DNA of 63,343 nucleotides, filler included, from Stramenopiles sp. TOSAG23-6 (lineage: Eukaryota): the NCBI GenBank assembly GCA_900128565.1. It is 8 parts of 8 records of this genome, joined end to end, with 100 filler letters (N's around TTAATTAATTAA, not from the genome) between each part and the next. Parts side by side here need not be neighbours in the genome. Positions count along the whole stretch, not along the records: positions 40,410 to 50,371 come from LT636341.1; 7 more parts are not named here. One strand, 5' to 3'. Shown in pieces: positions 14,922-63,343 of this stretch. A model generated the notes under the pieces. That model was not told where the DNA came from. It saw nothing but the letters and a program-made list of their open reading frames with translations, and searched no databases. How positions within the stretch are numbered: the first letter of the stretch is position 1; each line of letters opens with the position of its first letter. Made by a program: the position numbers and the translations under genes.

Positions 14922-15098
14922 TTTAAAGAAATGCTGTCAATAGAAAACAATATTACACCTATACACGTACTAACTCTGCAGACTAATTATTAACACTGAA
15001 ATGTAAGATGGTACTACTAGCTATAGTAGGCTACTACTTTCTGTAGTTTTTGTTTTTTGTTGCGTTACGCTGAAACAAAGAATTGGCCTAGCTACACA

Positions 15099-15376
15099 GC
15101 ACGGCCCTAACCCTAATTTTGGACGGTTCGGACCGCGGCTTTAAAGTGCTGTAATTCCTAAAGTTCGTGCAGTTTTGACTACTACCGCATATGGGAATGA
15201 TCAATGCCAGGCAATGAAGACATGTATCTATATGGCATGTTAAAACTGCACGGCTTACATGGTCAAATAATGCATTGTAGCCGCGCCTGAAATAGGGGGG
15301 GTTTTCGTACGAAATTTTGTACCTAACGATTTTTTTTTTTTTTCCAACCGTCCACTTTTTGGCGTTTTGGCCGTGC
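15099..15376. mobile_element. Putative MITE-like or fold-back element carrying the intron motif
   Basis: Three nested inverted-repeat pairs; internal exact copy of the intron branch motif; no clear TSD. Confidence 0.4.
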
Positions 15377-15494
15377 ATGCAGTGCTAGGGTTAGGGTTAT
15401 ACGAAGGAACTCAAAATTTTTTGCATCGGCGGCGAAGCCAGCCAGACAGAGAGCACTTGTAGTAGCAGCTGGTATATTTAAATCTGATTAGTAA

Positions 15495-19970: not shown

Positions 19971-20294
19971 TTTACTTACAGGTACGTAAATCGTGAATCG
20001 AAATTTTCAATTTTTTGATGATTTCTTTCAAGAATAATTAATGGTCATAAAACTCATGGCTTACCTAGGCCTAGGGTTAGGGTTTGCGTTCGAAAAAAAA
20101 CCATTAATAATAATACAAATATTTTTTTTGTTTTCAAATTTTTGTNNNNNNNNNNNNNNNNNNNNNNNNNNNNNNNNNNNNNNNNNNNNTTAATTAATTA
20201 ANNNNNNNNNNNNNNNNNNNNNNNNNNNNNNNNNNNNNNNNNNNNACCTAACAAATTTTAGTTTTTTTTTTTTAAATACTTTTTCACAATACAT

Positions 20295-30038: not shown

Positions 30039-30397
30039 TCCCAAAGGGTAGGGTTTAAATTTCTGATATTTCTTATTTTTCGGGCATTTTTATTGCGTAG
30101 GGTAAATAATCAATTGAAGAGTTGAAGTGGGAGAATTTTTTATTGTGTATAGAGTAAACAATTTTTTTTGTACGAAATTTTGTACCTAACAAATTTTAAA
30201 AAAAATAATTCTAGAGTGTAAGTGGGAAAAATATATGAGAGATTNNNNNNNNNNNNNNNNNNNNNNNNNNNNNNNNNNNNNNNNNNNNTTAATTAATTAA
30301 NNNNNNNNNNNNNNNNNNNNNNNNNNNNNNNNNNNNNNNNNNNNGTACAAAATTTCGTACGAAAAAAAAATCAAATTTGAAAAAAAATAAAACATAC

Positions 30398-31614
30398 ATT
30401 TCCAACTCCCAAACTTCTTTTTGCATAGCTTCCTTTGAACTCACAACTCGTTGAAGTTCAGCTTTGAGATGAGCTCGATTTTGTTTCATCTGTTCAACAT
30501 CTTTAGCACTTAGTTCTTGTGCATCAACCTCAGCTTGAAGTTGAGCCTGTCGTTCTTGACATTCAATCAATTGTTTCGATTTTGCTTCACAATCTTCTCG
30601 TCGATGAGCCAGCTTTTTCTTCATAGTAACGGCATGATCATCTAACTTCTGAATGAGCATTTGGAACTTTTGTAAATCGTTTGTATAATCAGCTTGTTTT
30701 GCATGAAGAGCAGGTAAAGCAGACCCGGAATTTTCCAAAGTTGTTTTTTCTGCAGTGAGTTCTTGTTGCTTTTCTACGCTATCATCAATCTTCATTTGAA
30801 TTGCTTTATTACGATTTTCTTTATCCAAAATTAAATCTTGGAGAAGAGATTCTTCCATAGCATCGTCACCCGCGAGAAATGCTTTGTACGCTTTGCCCAG
30901 ATACTTAAAAAAGATGCGGGCACTCTTTTGTTCGTAGTCAACTTCAGTTTTATCTGTTTCATTTTCTTCAGCAAGGGAGACGGCATCATCGTATGATAGT
31001 AATTCAACAAGCCATGTCAGAGCAGCCAATAGAGCAGGCCATGTGTGTGGTGTACCAACGGCGCTGAGAGCGGTTTTTGATATAGAAAAAGGATAGCTGA
31101 TACCTTTGAACATTAAAGGAACTTCTTTTGTCATTTCCGTCATGGACCGACCGTTCTGATAATTCACGTCTAGTTTTCTAAATAAGAAATGAACAATATT
31201 GTGAAAATCACGATTAGTTGGTCGAAGAACTTGCTTTTTGTTTACAGGATGTTCATATTGGTGAGTAGCTAAATAAGTAATGAGAATATTCGCACACTCC
31301 TCAGTATACTTTTTATCACCAATGGGGCGACACTCTTTCTTCATTTCTGTGTGCATACTTCCATATAAACTTTGACGACGACCGACACCTAGACTGGATC
31401 TGTAATTACCAACACTTGCACGACGATTCTCGCGTAATCGACCACCACCCCCTCGTCGTGCGGGTGCGAGCGATACACGACCCCCGCCACCTACTCGTGG
31501 AGCCATGGACTGACGAGCCTTTGATCTTCGGATAGGTCGTGAACCACCTCTGTCATTATTCCGAAACTCATTAATTGACATCGCCCCTAGAGTTTGTCGG
31601 CGAGATGCACGCAT
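30398..31614 (-). CDS. NDC80: Kinetochore protein NDC80/HEC1, exon 1 (mirror copy)
   Basis: RPIGDKKY, RPTNRDF, YPFSISKTALSAVGTPHTWPALLAALTWL. Confidence 0.9.
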
Positions 31615-31941
31615 TTTCAATAATGTTGTATTTTCAACACTATACTTAATACACTCTTTAGGAATCAATGTAACACTACTAATTATTCAAAAAAAGAAAA
31701 ACAACACGCAAACAAAGAAGAAGTCCAATATCATGAAAAATGAATTCAAATTTTTGATGTTGCCGAAAAACAGCAGATTTCGTGTAGTAAGAGTCAGCCG
31801 CGATTTCAGATTAGATTGGCATTAGGTTAGGTAGTCTACAAGCTATATAGTAATATATGTATCAACCATTACAGTACGCTAACTACTGTAGCTAAAACGG
31901 ACAGAACTCTTTCAGTAGTTGCTTGCAAACCTTTCCATAAT

Positions 31942-33933
31942 ATGGGGAAATATGGGAAAATGAAGCGTAAGCGCAAGCGTAAGCGAGTAGCTGGAATGAA
32001 CCCTCCAGTATCAGCTGCCTGTACTACTGTTTCCGAAAACTCTAATGATCAAGTAAATATAGATGAGCTTTGTTCTCTTCTTACGTATTTATCGAATAAT
32101 AGTGCCGTAGTAGACTATTATAGTTTACACTTTCGACCACTTCGTCGGTCTCTTCGTCCACTTTTAGAGGAATTGTCGATTGTTTATAACTCTTCAAACG
32201 TCACAAAGAAACAGAGGAAGCATAGACAACAACAACATAATTTGAAGAAAAAACAAAAATACATGGTTGAAGAAACTGACTTTAGTATTGATTTATTGAA
32301 TAGTGAGAAAATATTGAGTCAATCCATTAGAACCATTGATGAAGTTGTGTCTGTTCCGGGACTGATCACGACGAAGCCAATGAAGAAACTTCGTAGCACA
32401 CTTACTTACTTTATGCAAGAATATGATAAAGAGAAATCAAGTAGTATGAGTAATCGTATTTCAGTTGCCTTACGAGATGGTTGCCACCGCGACGCAATTA
32501 CTTTATTATCCAAAATGCGGTCAGAAAAGCATCAGCCAAAGTTATCGTCTGTTCAACGTTGGGTGCGTGATGTCATGAATGAGGATAAATTTGCTAGTTT
32601 AGATAACAAAGATGCTGTTAGTTTACTTTATAATATTTGTTGTTTACAGCCTTTATCGTGGTGGTGGATTGAACAAAAAAATCAAGAAAATCAAAACAGT
32701 CAAGTGATAAAACAGAAGAAACAAGAAAATAAAGAAAATCAAGTGGTACAAAAAAAGTGTCACAAACTAATTGAATGGTTTCCTTCATTTGCCGCGGAAC
32801 CTCGGGGAAAACCAATTCCATCTGATCCGCATGACATTGCCGATATACATGCATTTGAATTGGGTCAACAACGCATTCTTGCATCTACTACTACTACTAC
32901 TACTACTACTAATACTAATACGAGTATGGATATTTCAAAAAAGACTAGTACAGATGTCACATTAAATATATATACTGGAAAATATGGAACACGAGAAAGA
33001 GAAAATCTTTGTGTAATGTCTGCATCACACTACGCAAATGCTTTTAAAGTAGTATATAAAGAAAATGGCGGAGATCGCCGTCCACGAAATCGTTATGCAT
33101 TAACAATCTATCAGTCTATAGAATCCATTATTACATATGATATTGATTTAGATAAGCCGAATTGTAGTAAGCAAATACGTACAGACGTACCAAATGTCCC
33201 AGGAGCATTTGTCATTTCAAATATTCTTTCCTTGAATGAATGCAATCAAATTATTGCTGCTGCTGAAGGATCTCCTGATGGGTATGTACCGGATGAACCT
33301 CTCACTTCAGCACCACCACCACCAGGATATACTCCACGAGCACGTAGTTTTATTTGGCTAACAGATCAATTATCAGAAAAGATGTTTGCTCGATGTCGAA
33401 GATTTTTACCACAGACTGTTGGAGATTCAACACTACCAATGACACAAGGGTTAAATGCAAGATTGCGATTATATAGATATCACCCAGGTGCAATTTATCG
33501 ACCTCACGTTGATGGATCTTGGCCAGGAAGTGGTATAAGAATGATGAATAAAAATGTGGATAATGAGCTAGGAATGAATCCTTCCAATATGTTGTCTGAA
33601 TCATTTTCAAAAACAAATCAAATAGAAAAGTATGAATATGATATTTTCGGAGATAGATGGTCACGTTTTACCTTTTTAGTCTACTTAAATGACGATTTTG
33701 AAGGTGGAACAACCAATTTTTATACACCTAGTCCAAATGAAAATATAATGGAAGGAAGAAGAGTTGAACCACGTGTTGGTTCTGTTTTGATATTTCCTCA
33801 TGGAGGATCTGTTGGTAGTATTGTTCATGAAGGGAGTGCAGTAACTAAAGGAGCAAAATATGTAATTCGTACTGATATTTTATACTTAATTCCAGGACAT
33901 ACACGTAAAGTGTGGGGTGAGAATAATGAGTAA
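31942..33933 (+). CDS. 2OG-Fe(II) oxygenase (prolyl-4-hydroxylase-like)
   Basis: RLRLYRY, PHVDG, TFLVYLNDDFEGGTT, HEGSAVTKGAKYVIRTD. Confidence 0.9.
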   Translation: MGKYGKMKRKRKRKRVAGMNPPVSAACTTVSENSNDQVNIDELCSLLTYLSNNSAVVDYYSLHFRPLRRSLRPLLEELSIVYNSSNVTKKQRKHRQQQHNLKKKQKYMVEETDFSIDLLNSEKILSQSIRTIDEVVSVPGLITTKPMKKLRSTLTYFMQEYDKEKSSSMSNRISVALRDGCHRDAITLLSKMRSEKHQPKLSSVQRWVRDVMNEDKFASLDNKDAVSLLYNICCLQPLSWWWIEQKNQENQNSQVIKQKKQENKENQVVQKKCHKLIEWFPSFAAEPRGKPIPSDPHDIADIHAFELGQQRILASTTTTTTTTNTNTSMDISKKTSTDVTLNIYTGKYGTRERENLCVMSASHYANAFKVVYKENGGDRRPRNRYALTIYQSIESIITYDIDLDKPNCSKQIRTDVPNVPGAFVISNILSLNECNQIIAAAEGSPDGYVPDEPLTSAPPPPGYTPRARSFIWLTDQLSEKMFARCRRFLPQTVGDSTLPMTQGLNARLRLYRYHPGAIYRPHVDGSWPGSGIRMMNKNVDNELGMNPSNMLSESFSKTNQIEKYEYDIFGDRWSRFTFLVYLNDDFEGGTTNFYTPSPNENIMEGRRVEPRVGSVLIFPHGGSVGSIVHEGSAVTKGAKYVIRTDILYLIPGHTRKVWGENNE

Positions 33934-34399
33934 CTTGAACTTTATACGAATTTTATACTGATATTATAAAGAAAACTAACTCTTGTCTTTTATATTTGTT
34001 AGGATTTTTAAATGCGGAACAATATTTAAACTTCCTATTAGTATTATTATTATTATGTTGAACTACTCATGTCTCACTCATGTCAAGATGAAAACGTGTT
34101 TTACTATTAATATCTATAACGAAAATCTCCGCTTTTTCGGTCGACGGAGGTTTTAATAATTTTTTGCTCTGACCACTCGCGCTCATCCTGATGACAGAAT
34201 TCGGCCAACCGATATGTCAACATTGGATCGATTGGCTTTGTGTTAACTTAATCATCATAAGTAAATACTTAATACAACTAAACATTCGTTACGTTGTTCA
34301 GTGTTTAGCATCCAAGGATCTGGACGTACCACACCTGCCAGTGGCCAGGAGAGAGAGAGAGTTTTATGAGAGAGAAAAAGTATTCCGCAGAGCTTCAAC

Positions 34400-35520
34400 A
34401 TGGGTGCGAAAAACAAAAAAAAAGCTTTCAAGCGGTACACTCATTCTGCTAAGTCAGGTAACAGTATTTCACAATACAATCTTGGTAAGTGCTATTATTA
34501 TGGTGATGGTGTTGCTGAAGACAAAAAAGAAGCTTTCAAGTGGTTTACTAAATCTGCGAATNNNNNNNNNNNNNNNNNNNNNNNNNNNNNNNNNNNNNNN
34601 NNNNNNNNNNNNNNNNNNNNNNNNNNNNNNNNNNNNNNNNNNNNNNNNNNNNNNNNNNNNNNNNNNNNNNNNNNNNNNNNNNNNNNNNNNNNNNNNNNNN
34701 NNNNNNNNNNNNNNNNNNNNNNNNNNNNNNNNNNNNNNNNNNNNNNNNNNNNNNNNNNNNNNNNNNNNNNNNNNNNNNNNNNNNNNNNNNNNNNNNNNNN
34801 NNNNNNNNNNNNNNNNNNNNNNNNNNNNNNTGGTGTTGCTGAAGACAAAAAAGAAGCTTTCAAGTGGTTTACTAAATCTGCGAATGCTTGTAATAGTTAT
34901 GGACAATTTATGCTTGGCTTATGCTATTTTTATGGTAATGGTGTTGCTGAAGACGAAAAAGAAGCTTTCAAGTGGTTGACTAAATCTGCAAATGCTGGTA
35001 ATAGTGAAGGACAATTTATGCTTGGTGGATGCTATTTGAAAGGTCATGGTGTTGCTCAAGATGAAAATGAAGCTTTTAAGTGGTTTACTAAATCAGCTAA
35101 TGCTGGTAATAGTGATGCACAATTTCAAGTTGGTCTTTTTTATTTTAATGGTGATGGTGTTGCTGAAAATAAAAAAGAAGCTTTCGAATGGTTTACTAAA
35201 TCGGCTATTGCGGGTAATATGCGTGCACAGTATCATCTTGGTTTATGTTATTTTAATGGTCATGGTGTTGATATAGACAAAAAAAAAGCTTTCAAGTGGT
35301 ATACTAAATCGGCTAATTTAGGTAGTAGTGAAGCACAACAAAATCTTGGTTCTTGTTACATGGATGGTAATGGTGTTGCTGAAAACAAAAAAAAAGCTGT
35401 CAAGTGGTTGACTAAATCTGCAAATGCTGGTAATAGTGAAGGACAAAATAAGCTTGGTTATTGCTATTTTCATGGTGTTGGTGTTGCTGAAGACAAAAAA
35501 GAAGCTTTCAAGTGGTATAA
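34400..35520 (+). CDS. Sel1-like repeat protein (gapped, truncated at inversion point)
   Basis: 36-aa repeats AQxxLGxCYxxGxGVAEDKKEAFKWFTKSA. Confidence 0.9.
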
Positions 35521-36254
35521 CCAAGCTTATTTTGTCCTTCACTATTACCAGCATTTGCAGATTTAGTCAACCACTTGACAGCTTTTTTTTTGTTTTCAGC
35601 AACACCATTACCATCCATGTAACAAGAACCAAGATTTTGTTGTGCTTCACTACTACCTAAATTAGCCGATTTAGTATACCACTTGAAAGCTTTTTTTTTG
35701 TCTATATCAACACCATGACCATTAAAATAACATAAACCAAGATGATACTGTGCACGCATATTACCCGCAATAGCCGATTTAGTAAACCATTCGAAAGCTT
35801 CTTTTTTATTTTCAGCAACACCATCACCATTAAAATAAAAAAGACCAACTTGAAATTGTGCATCACTATTACCAGCATTAGCTGATTTAGTAAACCACTT
35901 AAAAGCTTCATTTTCATCTTGAGCAACACCATGACCTTTCAAATAGCATCCACCAAGCATAAATTGTCCTTCACTATTACCAGCATTTGCAGATTTAGTC
36001 AACCACTTGAAAGCTTCTTTTTCGTCTTCAGCAACACCATTACCATAAAAATAGCATAAGCCAAGCATAAATTGTCCATAACTATTACAAGCATTCGCAG
36101 ATTTAGTAAACCACTTGAAAGCTTCTTTTTTGTCTTCAGCAACACCATCACCATAATAATAGCACTTACCAAGATTGTATTGTGAAATACTGTTACCTGA
36201 CTTAGCAGAATGAGTGTACCGCTTGAAAGCTTTTTTTTTGTTTTTCGCACCCAT
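35508..36254 (-). CDS. Sel1-like repeat protein (mirror copy)
   Basis: Same repeats on the opposite strand. Confidence 0.85.
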   Translation of the reverse strand: MGAKNKKKAFKRYTHSAKSGNSISQYNLGKCYYYGDGVAEDKKEAFKWFTKSANACNSYGQFMLGLCYFYGNGVAEDEKEAFKWLTKSANAGNSEGQFMLGGCYLKGHGVAQDENEAFKWFTKSANAGNSDAQFQVGLFYFNGDGVAENKKEAFEWFTKSAIAGNMRAQYHLGLCYFNGHGVDIDKKKAFKWYTKSANLGSSEAQQNLGSCYMDGNGVAENKKKAVKWLTKSANAGNSEGQNKLGYTT

Positions 36255-36720
36255 GTTGAAGCTCTGCGGAATACTTTTTCTCTCTCATAAAACTCTCTCT
36301 CTCTCCTGGCCACTGGCAGGTGTGGTACGTCCAGATCCTTGGATGCTAAACACTGAACAACGTAACGAATGTTTAGTTGTATTAAGTATTTACTTATGAT
36401 GATTAAGTTAACACAAAGCCAATCGATCCAATGTTGACATATCGGTTGGCCGAATTCTGTCATCAGGATGAGCGCGAGTGGTCAGAGCAAAAAATTATTA
36501 AAACCTCCGTCGACCGAAAAAGCGGAGATTTTCGTTATAGATATTAATAGTAAAACACGTTTTCATCTTGACATGAGTGAGACATGAGTAGTTCAACATA
36601 ATAATAATAATACTAATAGGAAGTTTAAATATTGTTCCGCATTTAAAAATCCTAACAAATATAAAAGACAAGAGTTAGTTTTCTTTATAATATCAGTATA
36701 AAATTCGTATAAAGTTCAAG

Positions 36721-38712
36721 TTACTCATTATTCTCACCCCACACTTTACGTGTATGTCCTGGAATTAAGTATAAAATATCAGTACGAATTACATATTTTG
36801 CTCCTTTAGTTACTGCACTCCCTTCATGAACAATACTACCAACAGATCCTCCATGAGGAAATATCAAAACAGAACCAACACGTGGTTCAACTCTTCTTCC
36901 TTCCATTATATTTTCATTTGGACTAGGTGTATAAAAATTGGTTGTTCCACCTTCAAAATCGTCATTTAAGTAGACTAAAAAGGTAAAACGTGACCATCTA
37001 TCTCCGAAAATATCATATTCATACTTTTCTATTTGATTTGTTTTTGAAAATGATTCAGACAACATATTGGAAGGATTCATTCCTAGCTCATTATCCACAT
37101 TTTTATTCATCATTCTTATACCACTTCCTGGCCAAGATCCATCAACGTGAGGTCGATAAATTGCACCTGGGTGATATCTATATAATCGCAATCTTGCATT
37201 TAACCCTTGTGTCATTGGTAGTGTTGAATCTCCAACAGTCTGTGGTAAAAATCTTCGACATCGAGCAAACATCTTTTCTGATAATTGATCTGTTAGCCAA
37301 ATAAAACTACGTGCTCGTGGAGTATATCCTGGTGGTGGTGGTGCTGAAGTGAGAGGTTCATCCGGTACATACCCATCAGGAGATCCTTCAGCAGCAGCAA
37401 TAATTTGATTGCATTCATTCAAGGAAAGAATATTTGAAATGACAAATGCTCCTGGGACATTTGGTACGTCTGTACGTATTTGCTTACTACAATTCGGCTT
37501 ATCTAAATCAATATCATATGTAATAATGGATTCTATAGACTGATAGATTGTTAATGCATAACGATTTCGTGGACGGCGATCTCCGCCATTTTCTTTATAT
37601 ACTACTTTAAAAGCATTTGCGTAGTGTGATGCAGACATTACACAAAGATTTTCTCTTTCTCGTGTTCCATATTTTCCAGTATATATATTTAATGTGACAT
37701 CTGTACTAGTCTTTTTTGAAATATCCATACTCGTATTAGTATTAGTAGTAGTAGTAGTAGTAGTAGTAGATGCAAGAATGCGTTGTTGACCCAATTCAAA
37801 TGCATGTATATCGGCAATGTCATGCGGATCAGATGGAATTGGTTTTCCCCGAGGTTCCGCGGCAAATGAAGGAAACCATTCAATTAGTTTGTGACACTTT
37901 TTTTGTACCACTTGATTTTCTTTATTTTCTTGTTTCTTCTGTTTTATCACTTGACTGTTTTGATTTTCTTGATTTTTTTGTTCAATCCACCACCACGATA
38001 AAGGCTGTAAACAACAAATATTATAAAGTAAACTAACAGCATCTTTGTTATCTAAACTAGCAAATTTATCCTCATTCATGACATCACGCACCCAACGTTG
38101 AACAGACGATAACTTTGGCTGATGCTTTTCTGACCGCATTTTGGATAATAAAGTAATTGCGTCGCGGTGGCAACCATCTCGTAAGGCAACTGAAATACGA
38201 TTACTCATACTACTTGATTTCTCTTTATCATATTCTTGCATAAAGTAAGTAAGTGTGCTACGAAGTTTCTTCATTGGCTTCGTCGTGATCAGTCCCGGAA
38301 CAGACACAACTTCATCAATGGTTCTAATGGATTGACTCAATATTTTCTCACTATTCAATAAATCAATACTAAAGTCAGTTTCTTCAACCATGTATTTTTG
38401 TTTTTTCTTCAAATTATGTTGTTGTTGTCTATGCTTCCTCTGTTTCTTTGTGACGTTTGAAGAGTTATAAACAATCGACAATTCCTCTAAAAGTGGACGA
38501 AGAGACCGACGAAGTGGTCGAAAGTGTAAACTATAATAGTCTACTACGGCACTATTATTCGATAAATACGTAAGAAGAGAACAAAGCTCATCTATATTTA
38601 CTTGATCATTAGAGTTTTCGGAAACAGTAGTACAGGCAGCTGATACTGGAGGGTTCATTCCAGCTACTCGCTTACGCTTGCGCTTACGCTTCATTTTCCC
38701 ATATTTCCCCAT
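36721..38712 (-). CDS. 2OG-Fe(II) oxygenase (mirror copy)
   Basis: Identical translation to 31942-33933. Confidence 0.9.
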   Translation of the reverse strand: MGKYGKMKRKRKRKRVAGMNPPVSAACTTVSENSNDQVNIDELCSLLTYLSNNSAVVDYYSLHFRPLRRSLRPLLEELSIVYNSSNVTKKQRKHRQQQHNLKKKQKYMVEETDFSIDLLNSEKILSQSIRTIDEVVSVPGLITTKPMKKLRSTLTYFMQEYDKEKSSSMSNRISVALRDGCHRDAITLLSKMRSEKHQPKLSSVQRWVRDVMNEDKFASLDNKDAVSLLYNICCLQPLSWWWIEQKNQENQNSQVIKQKKQENKENQVVQKKCHKLIEWFPSFAAEPRGKPIPSDPHDIADIHAFELGQQRILASTTTTTTTTNTNTSMDISKKTSTDVTLNIYTGKYGTRERENLCVMSASHYANAFKVVYKENGGDRRPRNRYALTIYQSIESIITYDIDLDKPNCSKQIRTDVPNVPGAFVISNILSLNECNQIIAAAEGSPDGYVPDEPLTSAPPPPGYTPRARSFIWLTDQLSEKMFARCRRFLPQTVGDSTLPMTQGLNARLRLYRYHPGAIYRPHVDGSWPGSGIRMMNKNVDNELGMNPSNMLSESFSKTNQIEKYEYDIFGDRWSRFTFLVYLNDDFEGGTTNFYTPSPNENIMEGRRVEPRVGSVLIFPHGGSVGSIVHEGSAVTKGAKYVIRTDILYLIPGHTRKVWGENNE

Positions 38713-39039
38713 ATTATGGAAAGGTTTGCAAGCAACTACTGAAAGAGTTCTGTCCGTTTTAGCTACAGTAGTTAGCGTACTGTAATGGTTGATACATATA
38801 TTACTATATAGCTTGTAGACTACCTAACCTAATGCCAATCTAATCTGAAATCGCGGCTGACTCTTACTACACGAAATCTGCTGTTTTTCGGCAACATCAA
38901 AAATTTGAATTCATTTTTCATGATATTGGACTTCTTCTTTGTTTGCGTGTTGTTTTTCTTTTTTTGAATAATTAGTAGTGTTACATTGATTCCTAAAGAG
39001 TGTATTAAGTATAGTGTTGAAAATACAACATTATTGAAA

Positions 39040-40256
39040 ATGCGTGCATCTCGCCGACAAACTCTAGGGGCGATGTCAATTAATGAGTTTCGGAATAATG
39101 ACAGAGGTGGTTCACGACCTATCCGAAGATCAAAGGCTCGTCAGTCCATGGCTCCACGAGTAGGTGGCGGGGGTCGTGTATCGCTCGCACCCGCACGACG
39201 AGGGGGTGGTGGTCGATTACGCGAGAATCGTCGTGCAAGTGTTGGTAATTACAGATCCAGTCTAGGTGTCGGTCGTCGTCAAAGTTTATATGGAAGTATG
39301 CACACAGAAATGAAGAAAGAGTGTCGCCCCATTGGTGATAAAAAGTATACTGAGGAGTGTGCGAATATTCTCATTACTTATTTAGCTACTCACCAATATG
39401 AACATCCTGTAAACAAAAAGCAAGTTCTTCGACCAACTAATCGTGATTTTCACAATATTGTTCATTTCTTATTTAGAAAACTAGACGTGAATTATCAGAA
39501 CGGTCGGTCCATGACGGAAATGACAAAAGAAGTTCCTTTAATGTTCAAAGGTATCAGCTATCCTTTTTCTATATCAAAAACCGCTCTCAGCGCCGTTGGT
39601 ACACCACACACATGGCCTGCTCTATTGGCTGCTCTGACATGGCTTGTTGAATTACTATCATACGATGATGCCGTCTCCCTTGCTGAAGAAAATGAAACAG
39701 ATAAAACTGAAGTTGACTACGAACAAAAGAGTGCCCGCATCTTTTTTAAGTATCTGGGCAAAGCGTACAAAGCATTTCTCGCGGGTGACGATGCTATGGA
39801 AGAATCTCTTCTCCAAGATTTAATTTTGGATAAAGAAAATCGTAATAAAGCAATTCAAATGAAGATTGATGATAGCGTAGAAAAGCAACAAGAACTCACT
39901 GCAGAAAAAACAACTTTGGAAAATTCCGGGTCTGCTTTACCTGCTCTTCATGCAAAACAAGCTGATTATACAAACGATTTACAAAAGTTCCAAATGCTCA
40001 TTCAGAAGTTAGATGATCATGCCGTTACTATGAAGAAAAAGCTGGCTCATCGACGAGAAGATTGTGAAGCAAAATCGAAACAATTGATTGAATGTCAAGA
40101 ACGACAGGCTCAACTTCAAGCTGAGGTTGATGCACAAGAACTAAGTGCTAAAGATGTTGAACAGATGAAACAAAATCGAGCTCATCTCAAAGCTGAACTT
40201 CAACGAGTTGTGAGTTCAAAGGAAGCTATGCAAAAAGAAGTTTGGGAGTTGGAAAT
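39040..40256 (+). CDS. NDC80: NDC80/HEC1 exon 1; intron starts 40257 (AT|GTATG)
   Basis: Same CH-domain motifs as the mirror copy; coiled coil; truncated by contig end. Confidence 0.9.
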
Positions 40257-40409
40257 GTATGTTTTATTTTTTTTCAAATTTGATTTTTTTTTCGTACGAA
40301 ATTTTGTACNNNNNNNNNNNNNNNNNNNNNNNNNNNNNNNNNNNNNNNNNNNNTTAATTAATTAANNNNNNNNNNNNNNNNNNNNNNNNNNNNNNNNNNN
40401 NNNNNNNNN

Positions 40410-40947
40410 CCTGATTCGATAGATTCCGAAATGGTATCCCGGGACTGGATGAATATGGGATATGTATAGTACTTGATCCATTTGGAAGAAATACATTAAC
40501 AGGTGGTGACTGAGGCGACTGAGGCTGATGATTATGATAATACTGTTGTGGTGTTAATTGTAGAGGCGGCGGAGAATGTGAAAACCTCTGATGAGTTTGA
40601 TGAGTTAGATGAGTCTGTGATAAATGCAGAGGCGGCGGAGAATGAGTTTGATGATAGGGATAATATGGGCTTTGAGGACCCGGACGCTGTCCCATCAAAG
40701 GTGACTCACGTGACTCATCTGAGCCCAAACGGAATCGCCGTTGTTCATATTGTTGTTGTTGTTGTTCATGATAGTACTGATGTTGTTCTTGCATGTCCAG
40801 TGCACGGACGTCCATTGAACGAAATCGTCCATGGTGAGGATTGTTTTGTTTTCGTTGTTGCTGCTGTTGCTGATGATAAGAACCATACGAAGCAGCATGA
40901 CTGACGTATATGTAATGCAACACGAATAAAACAAATAACAATCTCAT
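40410..40947 (-). CDS. Secreted Q/H/P-rich protein, 5' part
   Basis: MRLLFVLFVLHYIYVSHA signal peptide; RFR motifs; truncated. Confidence 0.6.
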
Positions 40948-40984
40948 CGGATTAACCACTAACAAAGCCAACCTGTGAAAGTAT

Positions 40985-43900
40985 GTGAATGAGGTAAAAG
41001 TGAATATTGCAAATAATGCAAATAATAGTTCAAAGGACAAAGTAATTACACAATTCAACAGCATTGTAGAACAAGTAATAAAGCAATTGCGTGGTAAATC
41101 ATCAGATAATAAAATACCATCTAAAAGCGCCGTATTTGATAAAGTACTACAAGGACAAATCGAATCATTAAGACTTTATTGAAAAATATTCGAAAGAACG
41201 AAGGTAATCAAATATCGGGTAAACCAAAACAAAAACCTCGGAAAGATGAACAACGTCAATCGTTAAGGTCAAACAACCGTTCAAATAAGAAGAGTGGATG
41301 TTTCAGTTGTATGACAAAGAAGAAAAGTGGTGCAAGTGGTCATAAGAGCAAGAAGAGTGCGTGTTCATGGATACGTTTCGTCCAATCTGGAATTGCGTGC
41401 GTCTTTGCAATGATGTTTCATGTATCTATGTTACCAACAGATACATATGATTCATTGTCGAGTCAACCCTCAGTGATAACGTCTTCACAGTAGCCTGATT
41501 CATTGAAACAACATAAACCATGGTATCCTGATTCATTGAAATTACATAAATCATGGTATGTTCCAAGAACAGATACTATGAATAATGAGATACCATATGG
41601 CATATCCCCTGGATTTGATGTACAACGGTATCAAAACTTAGGACATACGACATCAATAAATACAATACCACAGGATCCAAGCAATATAAAAGTGCTTGAT
41701 CATATTGGATTTGATGCTTATGATGGTCTACCAAATGAAGCAAAGTACGAAGTGTACAAGGATAATTACTTTATGATGACTAAAACGTTACATCAAATAC
41801 TCGTGTCGTTTTCTGCTATGCCTCCGAAATGGCATGAAGATCTTACTATTCGTTGTACACATTTATTACCGTATTATCAAAAGGAAAAACAATTACGTGA
41901 AAAATTGTTTCATTATCATGTAATGTTTGATAAAAGTTATCCAGGAGTATGCGGTCAGTATTACACACAACAACATGCTCTTAACGATTTCGAATTAAAA
42001 AGATTGAATTACTATACATCTCAATGTGGTCTAGACAAGGGTAAATCACCAATGCAAACAATTGATTTTGTAAAAAGTTGGTGGCAGAAAATGGAACTGA
42101 AAATGATTCAAAATCATCCAGGATTATATGTTTTATTTTTTTTTTTCTTGTATGAATTTTTTTTCGTACGAAATTGTGTACCTAACAATTTTTTTTTCAA
42201 ATATTTTTCCAAAATACATAGTTGAACGTCATACAGTTGAATATACAACGAAACTGGTACGTTTAGTGTATCATGTGAACATTCATGGCTATGCGAACAA
42301 AATTAAACAAGTTGAAGCAGAACACTATCAAAAAGCAAAGAAAAAACGAAACGGTAATCATCAAGAAAGATCGTCTCAATTAGAGAGCACTCCTAAATTG
42401 GATGAGGCAATAAAAGAAATCAAAAGACGACGTAAGGAGTGGAGTAAATCATTTCATTTATTATTTCCGGATCGAGTACCAAGATGTATGTTTTTTTTTT
42501 CAATTTCAATTTCGAATTTTTTTTTTATTTTCGTACTAAATTTTGTACCTAACGAATTGTTTTTGAAATATTTTTCCAAAATACATATACCAAACGCAAA
42601 AGGATGCGTCTCAAGCGCGAATACAATGATTATATATCGAAATTAATGCTAGCATTGATAAATGATCAAAAGGAAATATCAGCAGAAGAATATCAAGTTA
42701 ATTTGAAGTACGTACGTGATGTAAAAATTCCAAGATATAAGAAAAACTTTCATGAAGAAAATGTATGTTTTATTTTTTTTCAAATTCTATTTTTTTTTTC
42801 GTACGAAAATTTGTACCTAACAAATTTTAGTTTTTTTTTACTATTTTTCCAAAATACATCCTGGTGTAGTTGTCGATGAAACACATGCTAATGCTGTTTT
42901 ACTAAATGTATATGAGCATATGGTGAAACCGTATGATATGCAGGCAAATGATATTCGAATGGAGTATCAAAGTAATCTTCATCATATTCAAGATCCTTCT
43001 CAAATTAATTTTCATTATACTCAACAACTTGATAAAATATCTGCGTCAAGAAAGAATATGTATGAAGAGTTTATTTATCTATTCCCACAACTTGAATCAA
43101 GGCTCGAAACTGGTGAGAAGAAGTATGAATTATTCGGTGCAGATCCTCAAAATACTCCTGAACATATAGCAAGAGCAATACGTGTGCTTGATGACATTAT
43201 TGGTGATATTGGTGATATTGGCAAGACACTGGAGCCTGTACCAATAAGAGTATCAATGGACGATGTACTACAAAAGTACAAACAAACTATGGGTACAATG
43301 GATGAAAAATTAGTACAATATGATACATTCCCAGATGAAGTCAAACTCGAAATATATAAGGAAAACTATTTTATTCATTCTCGTCCAATAAATTTTTTAG
43401 GAAGGGCTTCTTTTACATTGGGCAACATACGCAATGGATATGAAAGATGTGAGACAATCCTCGGATATGATCGCGCTGAAATATCAGCTAGAGAAAGATT
43501 ATACAAATACACTAAAGCATTTAATGATAAATACCCTTCCTTGCTTGGTCCTAACTATACAGAAAAGCATTTGATCAATGTACGTTTTCATTTCATTTTT
43601 TTGTCTAAATTGTTTTTCATACGAAATTTTGTACCTAACATTTTTTTTTTTTTTTTTTAAATATTGTTTTTCATACGAAATTTTGTACCTAACATTTTTT
43701 TTTTTTTTTTTGAAATATTGTTTCATAATCCATGGCTATCAAATACGTAGTCTCGGCTATTTTACAAAAATGTGTGATTTGGGCAGAGATGCAAAAGTTG
43801 AAGAAAGGAAAAAGATAAAAAGTGGAATGGAAGAAATGGTAAAGGATTTTAATAGAAATTATCCAGGACTTATTGATAAATTCTATAAAGAGTATCAAAC

Positions 43901-46223
43901 AAAAGTAAACAGGCTAATTTATCATGTCACTGTTAATGGTTATCATAACCAAATAAAAGAACGAGAAACAAAAAATGATGACATGTTGAAAAAGTATGGT
44001 GACTCTGAAGAACGTAGAAAACGTGCAACAAGTTATATTGAAAAAATTAAAGAAAAATTGGAACAATTTATTCGACAATTCCACAAGGATTATCCAAATC
44101 AAGTGCCAAAATATTCAAAAGCAAAAAGGAAGCGTTTGCAGCGCGAATATAGAGAATATATATCTGGTGTCATGTCTCAACTTGAAAAGAAAAAGCAGCA
44201 AGTATTATCTCCTGACCATGACTTTGAGAGCTTACGAAGTCATGCAGTCAATACCAAAATTGCCCAATATAAAGAAGAATTTCATGAGAGGTATGTATGT
44301 TTTATTTGTTTTCAAATTCGAATTTGTTTTCGTACGAAATTTTGTACCTAACGAGTTTTTGTTTTGAAATATTTTTCCAAAATACATCCTGGTGTTATTG
44401 TAGATGATTTATTTTCTGAAGTTACGTTGGTATTTGCATATACAAATATTATGAAGAATTTAGATAATCAAGCACAAGCAGTTATGTCGGGATATCAGAA
44501 AGAATTTCGCGCTTCAGCTAATCCGGCGAATGTTCAGTACGAATACTCATTGAAACTTCAAGAAGTCGGTGAACTGCGAAAGAAGAAAGAGAAAGAATTT
44601 CTTAAATTATTTCCACAACTCAGAGACAAGATTCAATTCCAACAACAACAAGGTCCCGTTACTTATGAACCGTTGCCTCTACAAGTGAATACAAGGCTGA
44701 CAAGCAATGGGAAAAAGAATGAAACACTTGATACAAATAGAAATGAATCACTTGCTAAAAATGGTGAAAGTATTCCTGAGCAAATAACAAGTGTAATAAA
44801 TCCCCAGGATGATGCTATTATTGAGACACAAGAGCCTGTACCAATAAGATTATCAATGGATTTTATATCGGAACAAACGGCGCGATCTCCTGTGATAGAA
44901 TCTAATTCAAGTCAAGCAGATAAATCTCCTGTGATAGAATCTAATTCAAGTGAAGCAGATAAATCTCCTGTGATAGAATCTAATTCAAGTGAAGCAGATA
45001 AATCAATAGCTTTCTTTCAACTTGACCTGATGGGAGATCAGTTACTACAGTATGATGATTTATCTGATGAAGACAAATCCGAAAGATACAAGGTATATTA
45101 TTTTAGACAGACGCGCATATTACAGGAAATAGAAATGGAGTTTGCAAAGATTCCATCACACTACAGAGGTTATGAAAAATGTGATTATGTCCGTCCATTA
45201 TATCGTACTGAAAACGAAGCAAGAGAGAAGCTATTCGATTATCATAAACGATTTGTGAAGAAATATTCTGGTTTGAGCGATTACTATCTTGAACAGCATG
45301 TAATGAATGGATATGAAATAAAACGATTGAAATTTTATACTAGTATGTGTGACTTAGGTAGACCAATGGGCGTAGAACAATTAGAATCAAAGGAAAAGAT
45401 AAAAAGGAGATGGAAAAAGATGGAAGAGGATTTGGATAAAAAACATCCTGGAATTATTGATAGATACAACAAAGCATTTCGAAAGAAGAACAATATACTT
45501 GTCTATCACATTAAAATCCATGGTTATCATAATAAGATGAAGGAACGTGATGTCAAGTATAAAAGAAGAGTCAAATTATTTGGTGATTCTGAAAGTCGAA
45601 GAGGACGTGTGAGAGATTTTAAAATAGGAGTACGAAAAAAGTTGAAAAACTTTATTAAAAAGTTCCATGAAAGTTNTCCNGGCGCGGTACCAAAATATTC
45701 AGAAATGGAAACAAAAACTTTACAGAGACAATATAGAGAACATATATCTAATATTATGTCTGAAGTAGAACGATATAAACATCTGGTTTCATCAGAAGTT
45801 GAATTTGAGAAATTTAAAGAATATACAATGAATATAAGACTAGCAAAATACAAACAAAGTTTTCACCAGGAATATCCTGGTATTATCGTCGATGAACCAT
45901 TTACTGATGCTACATTGTTTCACATATACACGCAAATGATGAAGTCTTTGGATGCCCAAGCACAAGAAGNAGTGTTGAAATTCCGCAAAGATTNTCANAC
46001 TACNGANGATCCAGAGAAACTGCAGCAAGAGTACNATTCAAAACTTGAGTTGGTTAGTAAAAGGCGAATTGTANTAGAGTTTGATTTCCTTGATTTCTTT
46101 CCGCAAATGGAAGGCAAACTTCCTATACAAGGACCAAAACCTTGGGAATTTGGAAATCATGTGCGAATGCAAATATATATGGATGGTGTTGAGGTTCAAG
46201 TAGACCCTACTAACCCTCAATAG
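40985..46223 (+). CDS. Large protein with three internal ~260-aa helical repeats; introns 42126-42219, 42486-42586, 42763-42859, 43580-43733, 44295-44387; 5' region disrupted
   Basis: Recurring LVYHVxIHGY, VPKY, FHxEYPG, FPQL motifs; frameshift ~41178 and in-frame TAG 41491-41493. Confidence 0.7.
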
Positions 46224-46348: not shown

Positions 46349-47488
46349 TTATTCACGCTTTCTAATCTGCATTTTGACACCACCAGCACCAAGACCACTT
46401 AAACCCATCATCGCACGAAAATTTGACATTGTCTTGGCTTCTTTTTCTTGAGCAGCCCTTGCTCGTTTCAATTTACTTTTATTTTGATTCTCTTTTTTTC
46501 TATCAATTCTTTTCTTCATCCTTTGAAATTGAGATCCTTCATTTGTGCCACCACCACCCATCGATACATTTTCAGATACAGACATTCCATCACGAAGAAA
46601 TTCTTTTTCTCTAGCACTACCATGTATTGTAAAAAAATATTTTTTTTTGTAAAATTTGTTAGGTACGAAATTTCGTACGAAAAAAAAATCGAAATTGAAA
46701 AAAAATTGAAAAAAAAAACATACATGAATTCTGTTTCCTTGTGATTGACGTTTTGCCATTTTCGAAGCATGACTTCCAGGGTCTGCTCTCGCGTTGTGAA
46801 TAATTTCCGATCGATGTCTTTTCTTTTTATCCTTTATATTTTTTCGGTTTTCTTGTTTTTCTTTATAGGAGATATTTTTACGCTGTGTAATATTTAAAGT
46901 ACCTGAATTTCTTCCCTCATTATTCGTGAATGTGTCGACCGCATCTTTTGTAGACTGAAGTTGAGCTCGATCTTTATCACCTAAAGTTTTGACAAAATTC
47001 CATTTATGTTTTGTTCTTTTAGTTGTTTCGAGGATTGCTTGGGAGATACCATCATAATACATAGTATCTAAGTCATCAGAATTCCATTTTGAACAAAATT
47101 TGGAGAATAAATGACGCGCATCATCAGTTAAAAGATCATCGAGATATTTCCTTTTCTCAAGATGCAACCACACGCGAAACTCTTTTGCATGTGTAAAGTA
47201 GTCTTCTCCACTTAAAACCCTTCGGCCACCGACGTCAATTCCGCGAGCTTGTAACAAAAGTTTGGCTTTCTTCAATTTACTATCGTGACTACTGCTAGAA
47301 CGGTGCTTCTTTGCTTTTTTGATGCGTTTTTTCTCTCTACGTTCAGTACTATCAGATTGGCTACTATTGTCATCAGTATCACTACGTTTGCTTTTGCGAT
47401 GTCGCTTTTTACTCTTTTTATGAGACTTCTTTTCCTTACTACTCTTTTTTTCCTTTTTTGCTTTTTTCTCTTTCTTGTTACGACTCAT
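46349..47488 (-). CDS. SCI1 (style cell-cycle inhibitor 1)-like nuclear protein; intron 46622-46723
   Basis: EDYF...EFRVWL.LEK..Y...L...AR.LFSKF..KWN...YY.GI motif; K-rich N-terminus. Confidence 0.7.
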   Translation of the reverse strand: MSRNKKEKKAKKEKKSSKEKKSHKKSKKRHRKSKRSDTDDNSSQSDSTERREKKRIKKAKKHRSSSSHDSKLKKAKLLLQARGIDVGGRRVLSGEDYFTHAKEFRVWLHLEKRKYLDDLLTDDARHLFSKFCSKWNSDDLDTMYYDGISQAILETTKRTKHKWNFVKTLGDKDRAQLQSTKDAVDTFTNNEGRNSGTLNITQRKNISYKEKQENRKNIKDKKKRHRSEIIHNARADPGSHASKMAKRQSQGNRIHVCFFFQFFFNFDFFFVRNFVPNKFYKKKYFFTIHGSAREKEFLRDGMSVSENVSMGGGGTNEGSQFQRMKKRIDRKKENQNKSKLKRARAAQEKEAKTMSNFRAMMGLSGLGAGGVKMQIRKRE

Positions 47489-47853
47489 TCCTCTATAAAT
47501 CTATTGAGAATGACGCTATGTAATAAAATCACTACGAGTAAGACAAATCAGTACTACAGTTTGGCTATCAGGCCTACACTCACGAATCTTAGAGGATGGC
47601 CTAGCTAGAACTATAATATGATATACTCGTGTGCGTGTGTGAATGAGCAAGGAGAGGTACAAATATTTTAATATTCTTGTTTTTCTGCTGATTTTCTTTG
47701 ACCAAAAAGTCCAAAAACACGAAAAACTGTAAAAAAAAACAGTTTTGCCCAAAAATGGTAGTCAGTTCGAGTTTTTCTCGCTCTGCGGTCGTTTGTTGTT
47801 CGGTCTCTTTCTGCTTCGCCATAGCTCTATCTACTACACACAAGCAAAACAAA

Positions 47854-61873: not shown

Positions 61874-61973
61874 NNNNNNNNNNNNNNNNNNNNNNNNNNN
61901 NNNNNNNNNNNNNNNNNTTAATTAATTAANNNNNNNNNNNNNNNNNNNNNNNNNNNNNNNNNNNNNNNNNNNN

Positions 61974-62000
61974 AAAAAAAAATAGGAAAAACCAATTGTG

Positions 62001-62033
<33 letters not shown>

Positions 62034-62497
62034 CAATTTCGATTTCGATTTTTTTTTTTATAAAAATGTTATACCTAACGAAAAACAACTTGAAATATTT
62101 TTCCAAATGCATGATGACATCGTTGATGATTTTGATACGAAAACGGCTAATACTATTAAGTCTATCTATCATCAAAAGAAACATATTCTTGCACAATCTG
62201 AAATTTTTCTTTCACCGGAGGATAGAAATTTTATTCCTTTTAGTTCAATGATTGGACATTTTGAAAAAAATTTTGAAAAAAAAATTGAAAAAAATATTGA
62301 AAAAAATTTTGAAAAAAAATTTCAATTGGATGATTTGACAAATGCACAAGATATATCAAATACATGCAAACGTTTACATATACCTCCACCAACCTCTCCT
62401 ACCTCTGAAGCTCGACAATTGTCAGTTTGTTTAAATAATTCTTCCCATCAGAATGTATGTTTTTCATACCCTAACACTCAATAACCTTAATTATTTC

Positions 62498-62819: not shown

Positions 62820-63283
62820 GAAATAATTAAGGTTATTGAGTGTTAGGGTATGAAAAACATACATTCTGATGGGAAGAATTATTTAAACAAACTGACAATT
62901 GTCGAGCTTCAGAGGTAGGAGAGGTTGGTGGAGGTATATGTAAACGTTTGCATGTATTTGATATATCTTGTGCATTTGTCAAATCATCCAATTGAAATTT
63001 TTTTTCAAAATTTTTTTCAATATTTTTTTCAATTTTTTTTTCAAAATTTTTTTCAAAATGTCCAATCATTGAACTAAAAGGAATAAAATTTCTATCCTCC
63101 GGTGAAAGAAAAATTTCAGATTGTGCAAGAATATGTTTCTTTTGATGATAGATAGACTTAATAGTATTAGCCGTTTTCGTATCAAAATCATCAACGATGT
63201 CATCATGCATTTGGAAAAATATTTCAAGTTGTTTTTCGTTAGGTATAACATTTTTATAAAAAAAAAAATCGAAATCGAAATTG

Positions 63284-63316
<33 letters not shown>

Positions 63317-63343
63317 CACAATTGGTTTTTCCTATTTTTTTTT
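61974..63343. repeat. Whole-contig inverted duplication around an N gap, containing an internal exon (62113-62453) of an unknown gene
   Basis: Mirrored identical ORFs; exon flanked by ...TGCAT| and AT|GTATG. Confidence 0.9.

Follow-up and report, generated by a model that had tools for sequence, protein, structure and literature searches.

Introners, as set out in the intron-related passages of PMC11282704 and PMC9860276, are elements resembling MITEs (miniature inverted-repeat transposable elements) that create introns, with one splice site carried by the element and the other derived from duplication of the target. Sections of PMC11282704 and PMC13326754 describe AG-AC and AG-AT introns in Fritillaria borealis, in which the 3′ end comes from an exonic TAC and U2AF paralogues bind the non-canonical 3′ ends; a section of PMC7789003 describes non-canonical introners in Amoebophrya with direct repeats of 3–5 nt and inverted repeats of 8–20 nt; and sections of PMC11282704 and PMC12621601 describe nonconventional introns of euglenozoans, which have neither GT/AG ends nor a pyrimidine tract and show stable end pairing. 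According to the survey passages of PMC12130899, large introner surveys began from annotated introns, with AG and AC as the expected 3′ ends. A family of the kind described here, residing in unannotated single-cell assemblies, would escape them. Here, we describe five inserts in one gene of Stramenopiles sp. TOSAG23-6 (assembly GCA_900128565.1, record LT636341.1), which are copies of one dispersed repeat family and for which we favor an origin as introner-type introns. The window referred to below is the whole stretch of DNA analyzed (63,343 nt), in which eight parts of eight records of this genome are joined end to end with filler letters between them.

Five inserts in a gene of three homologous units

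Exact removal of the five inserts (Table 1) gives a continuous coding sequence homologous to unit 3, the uninterrupted one of three homologous units in the host gene. A preliminary description had placed three intron sites in unit 1, two in unit 2, and none in unit 3, and these match the columns of a MAFFT alignment exactly; unit 1 carries inserts at columns 151 (PGL/, where the slash marks the cut here and below), 240 (phase 1, VPR-Y), and 301 (FHEEN/PG), unit 2 carries inserts at columns 102 (LIN/GY) and 301 (FHERY/PG), and unit 3 carries none, the site at column 301 being filled in both units 1 and 2. Retention of any one of the five inserts leads to a premature stop, which for insert 5 is an in-frame TAA within CCTAAC. 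The cuts as first drawn (42127-42217, 42486-42586, 42763-42859, 43580-43733, and 44295-44387) leave a frame of 4110 nt with no internal stop; with insert 1 set to 42126-42219, the frame has 4107 nt (1368 codons) and is also open.

Junctions were compared with the uninterrupted unit 3 (45027-46220) by BLASTP of single exons. Exon 5 corresponds end to end to unit-3 residues 95-283 (E 6e-52), the start and end of exon 4 fall at residues 284 and 94, respectively, and exon 2 ends at residue 223, with exon 3 in register from residue 225; because the exon ends abut on unit-3 residues, inserts 2-5 need no indel. Exon 1 ends, and exon 2 as first drawn begins (the “I” of IVERH), at one and the same unit-3 residue, 143, so the 91-nt cut of insert 1 (42127-42217) costs a one-codon indel, and this boundary was dropped. 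A 94-nt cut (42126-42219 or 42127-42220) is colinear with unit 3 with no indel and puts the ends of insert 1 in the register of the repeat family described below (ATATGTTTT for GTATGTTTT, and ...ACAT/ at the end). The codon-level alignment and the exon comparisons thus uphold the homology of the sites, and the observation is confirmed as real and beyond chance.

One gene therefore holds its own control, with filled and empty states of the same sites in three diverged units, and the comparison of these units fixes the cut points to within two bases with no need for transcript data. As the internal boundary control proposed initially, the repeats do pin the cuts within this 2-nt ambiguity, insert 1 being corrected from 91 to 94 nt. 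The comparison also reveals one homologous site that was either filled twice or kept twice and lost once. A single AT had been claimed at several empty sites and is present at VPKY in units 2 and 3 (aaATat), at MNGY in unit 3 (aATgga), and at EYPG in unit 3 (tATcct), but unit 1 has AC at the LIN/GY site. AT sites are common to units anyway (33-45%), so AT at four of the five empty sites is only weakly above expectation.

The encoded protein consists of a 34-residue head and the three units, whose amino-acid identities in the MAFFT alignment of the three are 33.0, 34.9, and 39.9%. In the codon alignment, nucleotide identities are 50.6% (units 1-2), 51.6% (1-3), and 60.7% (2-3); third codon positions are 42-52% identical, indicating that units 2 and 3 are closest to each other and that silent sites are near saturation. 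The host gene is an orphan: no Pfam family was found in the five exon translations scanned, the exon 6 protein had no relative among proteins of near length and no match among 1.84 billion representatives (its own sequence included), a search of the Atlas with the host-gene protein gave no usable match, and none of 107 pattern matches to host-gene loci in metagenome contigs was confirmed as related. Two tandem repeats lie in or beside the gene: a 39-nt in-frame repeat (x3.1; SPVIESNSS[QE]ADK) at 44885-45004, in the linker between units 2 and 3, and a 33-nt repeat (x2.1) at 41490-41559, directly upstream of the start codon.

Table 1. Inserts, host gene, units, and homologous empty sites; positions count along the window, and upper-case letters and slashes in empty sites mark the dinucleotide and the cut.
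Feature	Position	Strand	Description
Insert 1	42126..42219	+	94 nt, ATATGTTTT...CCAAAATACAT, AT...AT; equivalent cut 42127-42220
Insert 2	42486..42586	+	101 nt, phase 1, GT...AT, AT before
Insert 3	42763..42859	+	97 nt, phase 0, GT...AT, AT before; site homologous to that of insert 5
Insert 4	43580..43733	+	154 nt, phase 0, GTACGT...ATCCAT; other subfamily
Insert 5	44295..44387	+	93 nt, phase 0, GT...AT, AT before
Host gene	41578..46223	+	Six exons encoding a 1368-aa orphan protein with three homologous units; frame open once the five inserts are removed
Host exons	41578-42125, 42220-42485, 42587-42762, 42860-43579, 43734-44294, 44388-46223	+	
Unit 1	41680..43294	+	Three inserts; MAFFT and codon alignment; BLASTP of exon 1 against unit 3, E 3e-30
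Unit 2	43295..45026	+	Two inserts; longer linker with 39-nt x3.1 coding tandem repeat; MAFFT and codon alignment, BLASTP
Unit 3	45027..46220	+	Uninterrupted; internal reference for every junction; contains nine single N
Empty site, unit 3 (inserts 3 and 5)	45874..45875	+	gaa tAT/cct ggt
Empty site, unit 3 (insert 4)	45307..45308	+	atg aAT/gga tat
Empty site, unit 1 (insert 4)	41984-41985	+	AC
Empty site, unit 3 (insert 2)	45695..45696	+	aaA T/at; unit 2 counterpart 44111-44112
Empty site, unit 3 (insert 1)	45453..45458	+	gga att att
Empty site, unit 2 (insert 1)	43869-43874	+	ctt att

An abundant repeat family with splice-like signals

All five inserts are copies of one dispersed repeat family with the form AT/GTATGT...TTTTCGTACGAAATTTTGTACCTAAC...T-run...CCAAAATACAT/; the preliminary description had not picked up this abundant, sense-only family with its own GTATGT and TACCTAAC. 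With ≤3 mismatches allowed, the window contains 21 occurrences of a 22-nt core (CGTACGAAATTTTGTACCTAAC), as compared to 0.01 expected, and the 3′ end motif occurs 11 times, as compared to 1.25 expected. A profile built from four inserts gave 52 matches in the window, 28 of them at E<1e-3; two pairs among these matches represent the same DNA counted twice, because the assembly contains inverted duplicates. The larger of these (4317 nt, 100% complementary; 30245-34561 and 36093-40409) includes 44N-TTAATTAATTAA-44N linkers and makes genes such as Ndc80 (38968-40290) appear twice, while a second is found at the window end (61930-62484 versus 62833-63342); both look like assembly or amplification chimeras rather than biology. 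Twenty-nine family loci were curated in the window, and 19 hand-picked copies, aligned end to end, are 55-90% identical with unrelated flanks; two rows of this alignment were mis-registered by 1-6 nt and were read by eye. Pairs among the five inserts are 73-87% identical in this alignment and 76-90% identical when aligned alone. Subfamilies are told apart by their 3′ ends (CCAAAATACAT versus CACAATATAT) and 5′ ends (GTATGTTTTATTTT versus GTAYGTYTTCATC); inserts 1, 2, 3, and 5 belong to the first subfamily and insert 4 to another. Insert 4 also contains a 54-nt x2.1 tandem duplication of its core, and a duplication of core plus T-run of this size (~54 nt) was observed in two copies in total, at 51470-51284(-) and 43580-43733(+), which suggests slippage or nested insertion within elements.

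The order of the element is AT/GTATGTTTTATTTTTTTTCAAATT, T run, TTTTCGTACGAAATTTTGTACCTAAC, T run, GAAATATTTTTCCAAAATACAT/. Its GTATGT corresponds to the classical 5′ splice signal, and TACCTAAC, which sits within a small palindrome (GTACGAAATTTTGTAC), resembles the TACTAAC branch box. The branch-like A is located 34, 34, 39, 41, and 36 nt from the end in the five inserts; three of the five inserts have no AG downstream of this A, and T content is 49-58%. If the 5′ cut is kept at GTATGT, inserts 2, 3, and 5 offer no GT-AG alternative in frame near the element end. Since AT both precedes an insert and terminates it, GT...AT, TG...CA, and AT...AC are interchangeable notations for the cut, with the same product; for insert 2, the equivalent cuts are 42484-42584 (AT...AC) and 42485-42585 (TG...CA). 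The GT...AT register is preferred because GTATGT then occupies +1 to +6 and the last two bases are constant across copies, whereas the AT...AC register gives a variable final dinucleotide (AC, CC, GC, TC, AT). Inverted repeats are formed by the ends (ATGTAT and ATACAT), by a second pair (TTTCAAA and TTTGAAA), and at the center (GTACGAAA and TTTTGTAC); predicted RNA folds pair the ends (AUGUAU with AUACAU) in four of six copies, with a stem of six A/U-rich pairs. A second TAT (or ATAT/CTAT) is located exactly 15 nt upstream of the element end at 42571, 42844, 43718, and 44372, as well as in other copies; cutting at this TAT would likewise keep the frame, with five residues added.

Across the window, 3′ ends were placed by frame continuity and family register and are thus predicted ends. 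AT precedes 18 of 26 5′ ends, as compared to 12.3% of GT sites in the background of coding sequence, and AT constitutes 19 of 23 predicted 3′ ends, the remainder being one AG, one GT, and two ambiguous cases. AT is found on both sides in 15 of the 21 introns with both ends placed; four mismatched cases are off by one base. These frequencies fit a 2-bp AT target duplication that would supply a non-canonical 3′ splice site. In a gene recognized by Pfam as Acyl_transf_3, removal of 27464-27307 and 27206-27068 on the minus strand (GT...AT, 158 and 139 nt) yields one 729-codon frame, the halves of which match profile positions 4-100 and 121-319.

Several individual copies depart from the common pattern. 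In its N-terminal part, the Acyl_transf_3 gene contains a 99-nt copy (27948-27850, -) that ends in ...ACGT and has GT on each side; as this copy is in frame and stop-free, it could be either spliced or translated. The copy at 9783-9686(-) is the only one with canonical predicted ends, GT...AG (CACAATATAG for CACAATATAT), and is preceded by TG. A divergent copy at 2568-2678(+) follows an exon end ...GAA, and its family-register end (TTTTGACAT) is out of frame; the frame is kept only with an end at ...TTTTAA or ...AAATA, 7-10 nt downstream, and this copy either breaks the AT rule or contains an assembly indel. The gene at 49590-48300(-) contains a 50-nt candidate intron, AT/GTACAT...CAATACAT/ (48660-48611, -), whose palindromic core is inverted with respect to its ends and to the family orientation; removal of this intron adds 26 codons to the frame. 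This candidate may be an antisense or rearranged copy that is spliceable through its symmetric ends. A 46-nt core fragment (15302-15347) lies in an intergenic stretch (15080-15400) between an FKBP gene (-) and a small SNARE-like open reading frame (ORF) (+), flanked by imperfect inverted repeats with telomere-like CCCTAACCCTAA and TTAGGGTTAGGG.

With regard to orientation, 23 of the 29 curated loci have long open frames on the element's own strand, three are ambiguous, and three are short fragments outside long frames (3955, 15302, and 30162); none of the 29 is a clearly antisense copy inside a gene. Contigs of four sequencing runs (X2, DNA of the same organism; X3, a seawater metagenome; X7, RNA; and X5) were mapped to 5.3 kb of the window (40420-45675), on which 7408 (X2), 5784 (X3), 941 (X7), and 408 (X5) contigs were placed, with a depth in insert-bearing bins of 10^2-10^5 times that in exon bins. 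The element is thus very abundant, thousands of contigs of DNA runs carrying the family. One contig of the seawater metagenome (X3 record 12, 41718-42175) begins in exon 1 and continues into insert 1, and the filled state therefore exists beyond the source assembly. Searches for the core gave no matches in viral contigs (22-nt core) or metagenome contigs (20-nt core) and one match in genome contigs, in a metagenome-assembled genome of Bacteroidales with unrelated flanks, which is about the chance expectation. A spliced-transcript search for the in-frame family copy in the ORF at 46352-47500(-) gave no matches, and scans of the window with Rfam (gathering score) and for tRNAs gave nothing.

The organism appears to be a MAST-3-like stramenopile. 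An intact Rab GDI frame in the window (18330-20006, -) is 93% identical to the EukProt record GSMAST32, 79-80% identical to two further records, and ≤43% identical to all else, every named taxon included; we take the label GSMAST32 to denote MAST-3, a clade of uncultured marine stramenopiles. Near-match contigs came from seawater and marine metagenome runs, which fits with a marine organism. A diplonemid or larvacean origin of this DNA was dropped on the basis of the Rab GDI identities.

Origin of the inserts

The five inserts are probably, though by no means certainly, introner-type introns, i.e., copies of a non-autonomous mobile element of ~95 nt that would have spread after the units diverged, with duplication of AT. 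The element would have spread through genes of a MAST-3-like marine stramenopile once the three units had diverged, bringing sense-oriented signals with it (GTATGT, the branch-site-like TACCTAAC, a T-rich tract, and the spacing of 34-41 nt from branch A to end); it would lie between two ATs, most likely because of a 2-bp AT target duplication, and the spliceosome would remove the element together with one copy of AT (read as GT...AT), exactly restoring the reading frame. From the sequence, we infer removal at the RNA level with AT as the 3′ splice site, transposition at the DNA level with target duplication, and two independent hits at the homologous site of units 1 and 2. As the inserts are 73-90% identical and the host units only 51-61% identical at the nucleotide level, insertion after unit duplication is the best reading, in agreement with the intron turnover after duplication that had been proposed originally. 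Inserts 3 and 5 share their homologous site, and their identity of 87% does not exceed that of unrelated pairs; the copy closest to insert 5 is found in another gene (21595-21505; 90%). Gene conversion between units 1 and 2 at this shared site was considered and rejected: exon identity near the site is raised equally in all three unit pairs and not specifically in units 1-2, which indicates a conserved motif. Pointers that favor a DNA element include the nested inverted repeats, the core fragments outside genes, the copy with GT on both sides, a pattern expected of a real duplication, and the candidate with the inverted core at 48660-48611(-). Of the gain with AT duplication first suggested, the gain is favored, while the AT duplication is inseparable from insertion of an AT-ending element after an AT.

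Several observations weigh against DNA transposition with AT duplication, and two other origins draw on them. The two-AT pattern would equally result from an AT-ending element inserted after AT, or from insertion between A and T; eight of the 26 5′ ends have no AT before them (TT, AC, TG, GT, AA, TT, TC, and GG), and, since most of these introns still end in AT, the AT may serve as a signal of the intron end and not reflect a duplication. Insert 1 keeps the family register but starts with A, not G, and in the colinear model it is preceded by TT. The elements have short, A/T-rich terminal inverted repeats (6 nt including AT, then 3-4 more past a 1-nt bulge), fold z-scores of -0.6 to -3.1 are weak, no transposase was seen among the 29 ORF translations scanned, and similarity among copies could partly result from constraint on splicing signals. 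Among the eight X7 pieces listed, none is a junction-crossing RNA contig, seven being confined to exons or to the element and one (record 25, 40543-40845) lying upstream of the host gene; the joints listed in the contig mapping are all repeat-to-repeat, with sides of <30 letters. Strict sense orientation is also predicted by RNA-mediated intron transposition, in which an excised GT...AT intron would reverse-splice at a proto-splice site (exon ...AT/) and be copied back into the genome, nothing being duplicated and AT reflecting a site preference. This route, which we consider unlikely, is favored by the sense orientation of every in-gene copy, by the intron-end AT kept (19/23) even where the exon end is not AT, by splicing signals being the only complete signals in an element with no transposase in sight, and by AT/cctggtgt at the twice-filled site, which could be a preferred exon context; in contrast, reverse splicing needs neither nested inverted repeats nor a central palindrome, and it accounts poorly for short core fragments beyond long frames, for the inverted core at 48660-48611(-), for the GT on both sides of 27948-27850, and for the existence elsewhere of copies at least as close to inserts 3 and 5 as these are to each other. 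DNA transposition with AT duplication is thus ranked above it, as it is above the presence of several old introns in the ancestral unit followed by precise, reverse-transcriptase-mediated losses, mainly from the 3′-most unit 3. Precise loss, especially from that unit, stays a candidate, if a rather unlikely one. A site shared by units 1 and 2 is improbable by chance under uniform AT targeting (three and two inserts; P about 0.016) and is explained no less naturally by an old intron that unit 3 has lost than by two hits; parsimony on ((2,3),1) is indifferent for this site; and all five inserts lie within the first 55% of the coding sequence, the last 45% being insert-free (chance about 0.05), which is the pattern of 3′-biased loss. 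Old introns are difficult to reconcile with inserts that are 73-90% identical beside near-saturated third positions (42-52%) and with nearest relatives of inserts 3 and 5 in other genes, and insert 4, of a different subfamily, would require two losses.

Two further explanations concern whether spliceosomal introns are present at all. Removal by another route, either euglenozoan-style excision through end pairing or DNA elimination, would be consistent with the pairing of ends in four of six folds and with a short direct repeat that makes the cut ambiguous, as in the nonconventional introns treated in parts of PMC12621601 and PMC11282704. We regard such removal as improbable, because GTATGT, the TACCTAAC box, the T tract, the fixed spacing, and the strict orientation point to the spliceosome, because the terminal stem has six A/U-rich pairs only, and because filled DNA is present in DNA runs and in the seawater metagenome contig. 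It is more improbable still that there are no introns here, the gene being a decaying one hit by transposons or the arrangement an assembly artefact. The assembly is poor (1431 N in the window, the 4317-nt perfect inverted duplication, and nine N in unit 3), and the host gene has no known relative; against this, cutting the five inserts out exactly leaves an open frame of 1368 codons in AT-rich DNA, every junction is colinear with unit 3, the RNA library (X7) yields contigs that match exon sequence (43185-43546, 44498-44649, and 45474-45673) apart from 1-6 differences, and the same removal rule repairs the Acyl_transf_3 gene recognized by Pfam.

Comparison with known intron systems

Tentatively, and with a little less than even confidence, we extend this reading to the whole MAST-3-like lineage, in which nearly all introns would be GT...AT introns of one introner family, the element giving the 5′ site and branch box and the AT duplication giving the 3′ site, and in which the spliceosome would take AT instead of AG (as YAT, 34-41 nt from the branch point). 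The 3′-site relaxation known from Fritillaria would then have a second natural example, independent and simpler, and such introns would go unseen in surveys that begin with annotated canonical introns. The origin of new introns and the flexibility of splice-site rules are old open questions; an abundant uncultured ocean grazer with GT...AT introns would offer a clean system for 3′ splice-site recognition and introner target choice, and gene models based on GT-AG would mis-call most insert-bearing genes in single-cell and metagenome assemblies of this kind.

AT-AC ends are tolerated by both U12-type and U2-type spliceosomes, and U12-type introns have a 5′ ATATCCTT and a branch box TCCTTAAC close to the 3′ end. 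While the cut of inserts 2, 3, and 5 can be written as AT...AC, their 5′ end is ATGTATGT rather than ATATCCTT, and the branch-like box is located 34-41 nt, rather than about 10-20 nt, from the 3′ end; with a 5′ end of (AT)GTATGT and CTAAC at this distance, a U12-type AT-AC identity was rejected. An identity with the nonconventional introns of euglenozoans was also rejected, as GTATGT is present, T content reaches 49-58%, the stem has 6 bp, and the lineage marker is that of a stramenopile. Internal eliminated sequences of the ciliate type were set aside, since the boundaries are AT, not TA, and the filled DNA occurs in DNA runs of the organism and in a metagenome contig.

We found no literature description of GT...AT introner introns of the present kind, and “GT-AT” together with “introner” returned 0 papers. 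Neither “stramenopile” nor “MAST” occurs in the portions available of PMC9860276 and PMC12130899, and the passages on “intron” in the MAST single-cell paper (PMC5778133) do not mention unusual introns, “splice” being absent from that paper. Repeated non-canonical introns are shared with Amoebophrya, where, in the section cited (PMC7789003), a direct repeat over the junction and inverted repeats that pair the ends also make the cut ambiguous; unlike the introns in that section, which have no consistent terminal dinucleotides, those described here have uniform GT...AT ends, a 6-nt stem, and branch and T-tract signals. The introns of Fritillaria borealis, as presented in parts of PMC11282704 and PMC13326754, are, as is proposed here, derived from MITEs, take their 3′ end (AC or AT) from an exonic target repeat, occupy species-specific positions, and require a spliceosome that accepts a non-AG 3′ end. 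In contrast, the 5′ end is the non-canonical AG in Fritillaria and a textbook GTATGT here, and the present host is a protist, not an animal, with a single dominant family that has a conserved internal core.

Another close likeness is to the introners of Micromonas pusilla, Aureococcus, and other, mostly aquatic, eukaryotes, which also occur as many near-identical short introns at unrelated positions and are GC-poor relative to exons; in those parts of the literature cited above, one splice site lies in the element, the other comes from target duplication, and removal restores the frame. The present elements differ in an apparent duplication of 2 bp (AT), so that the co-opted 3′ end would be AT rather than AG, in their very short terminal inverted repeats, and in the yeast-like branch box within the element. 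Judged by its sequence features, the present family thus appears to follow known introner logic and to be new in combining a canonical 5′ site and a branch box of its own with a 2-bp AT repeat and an AT 3′ end.

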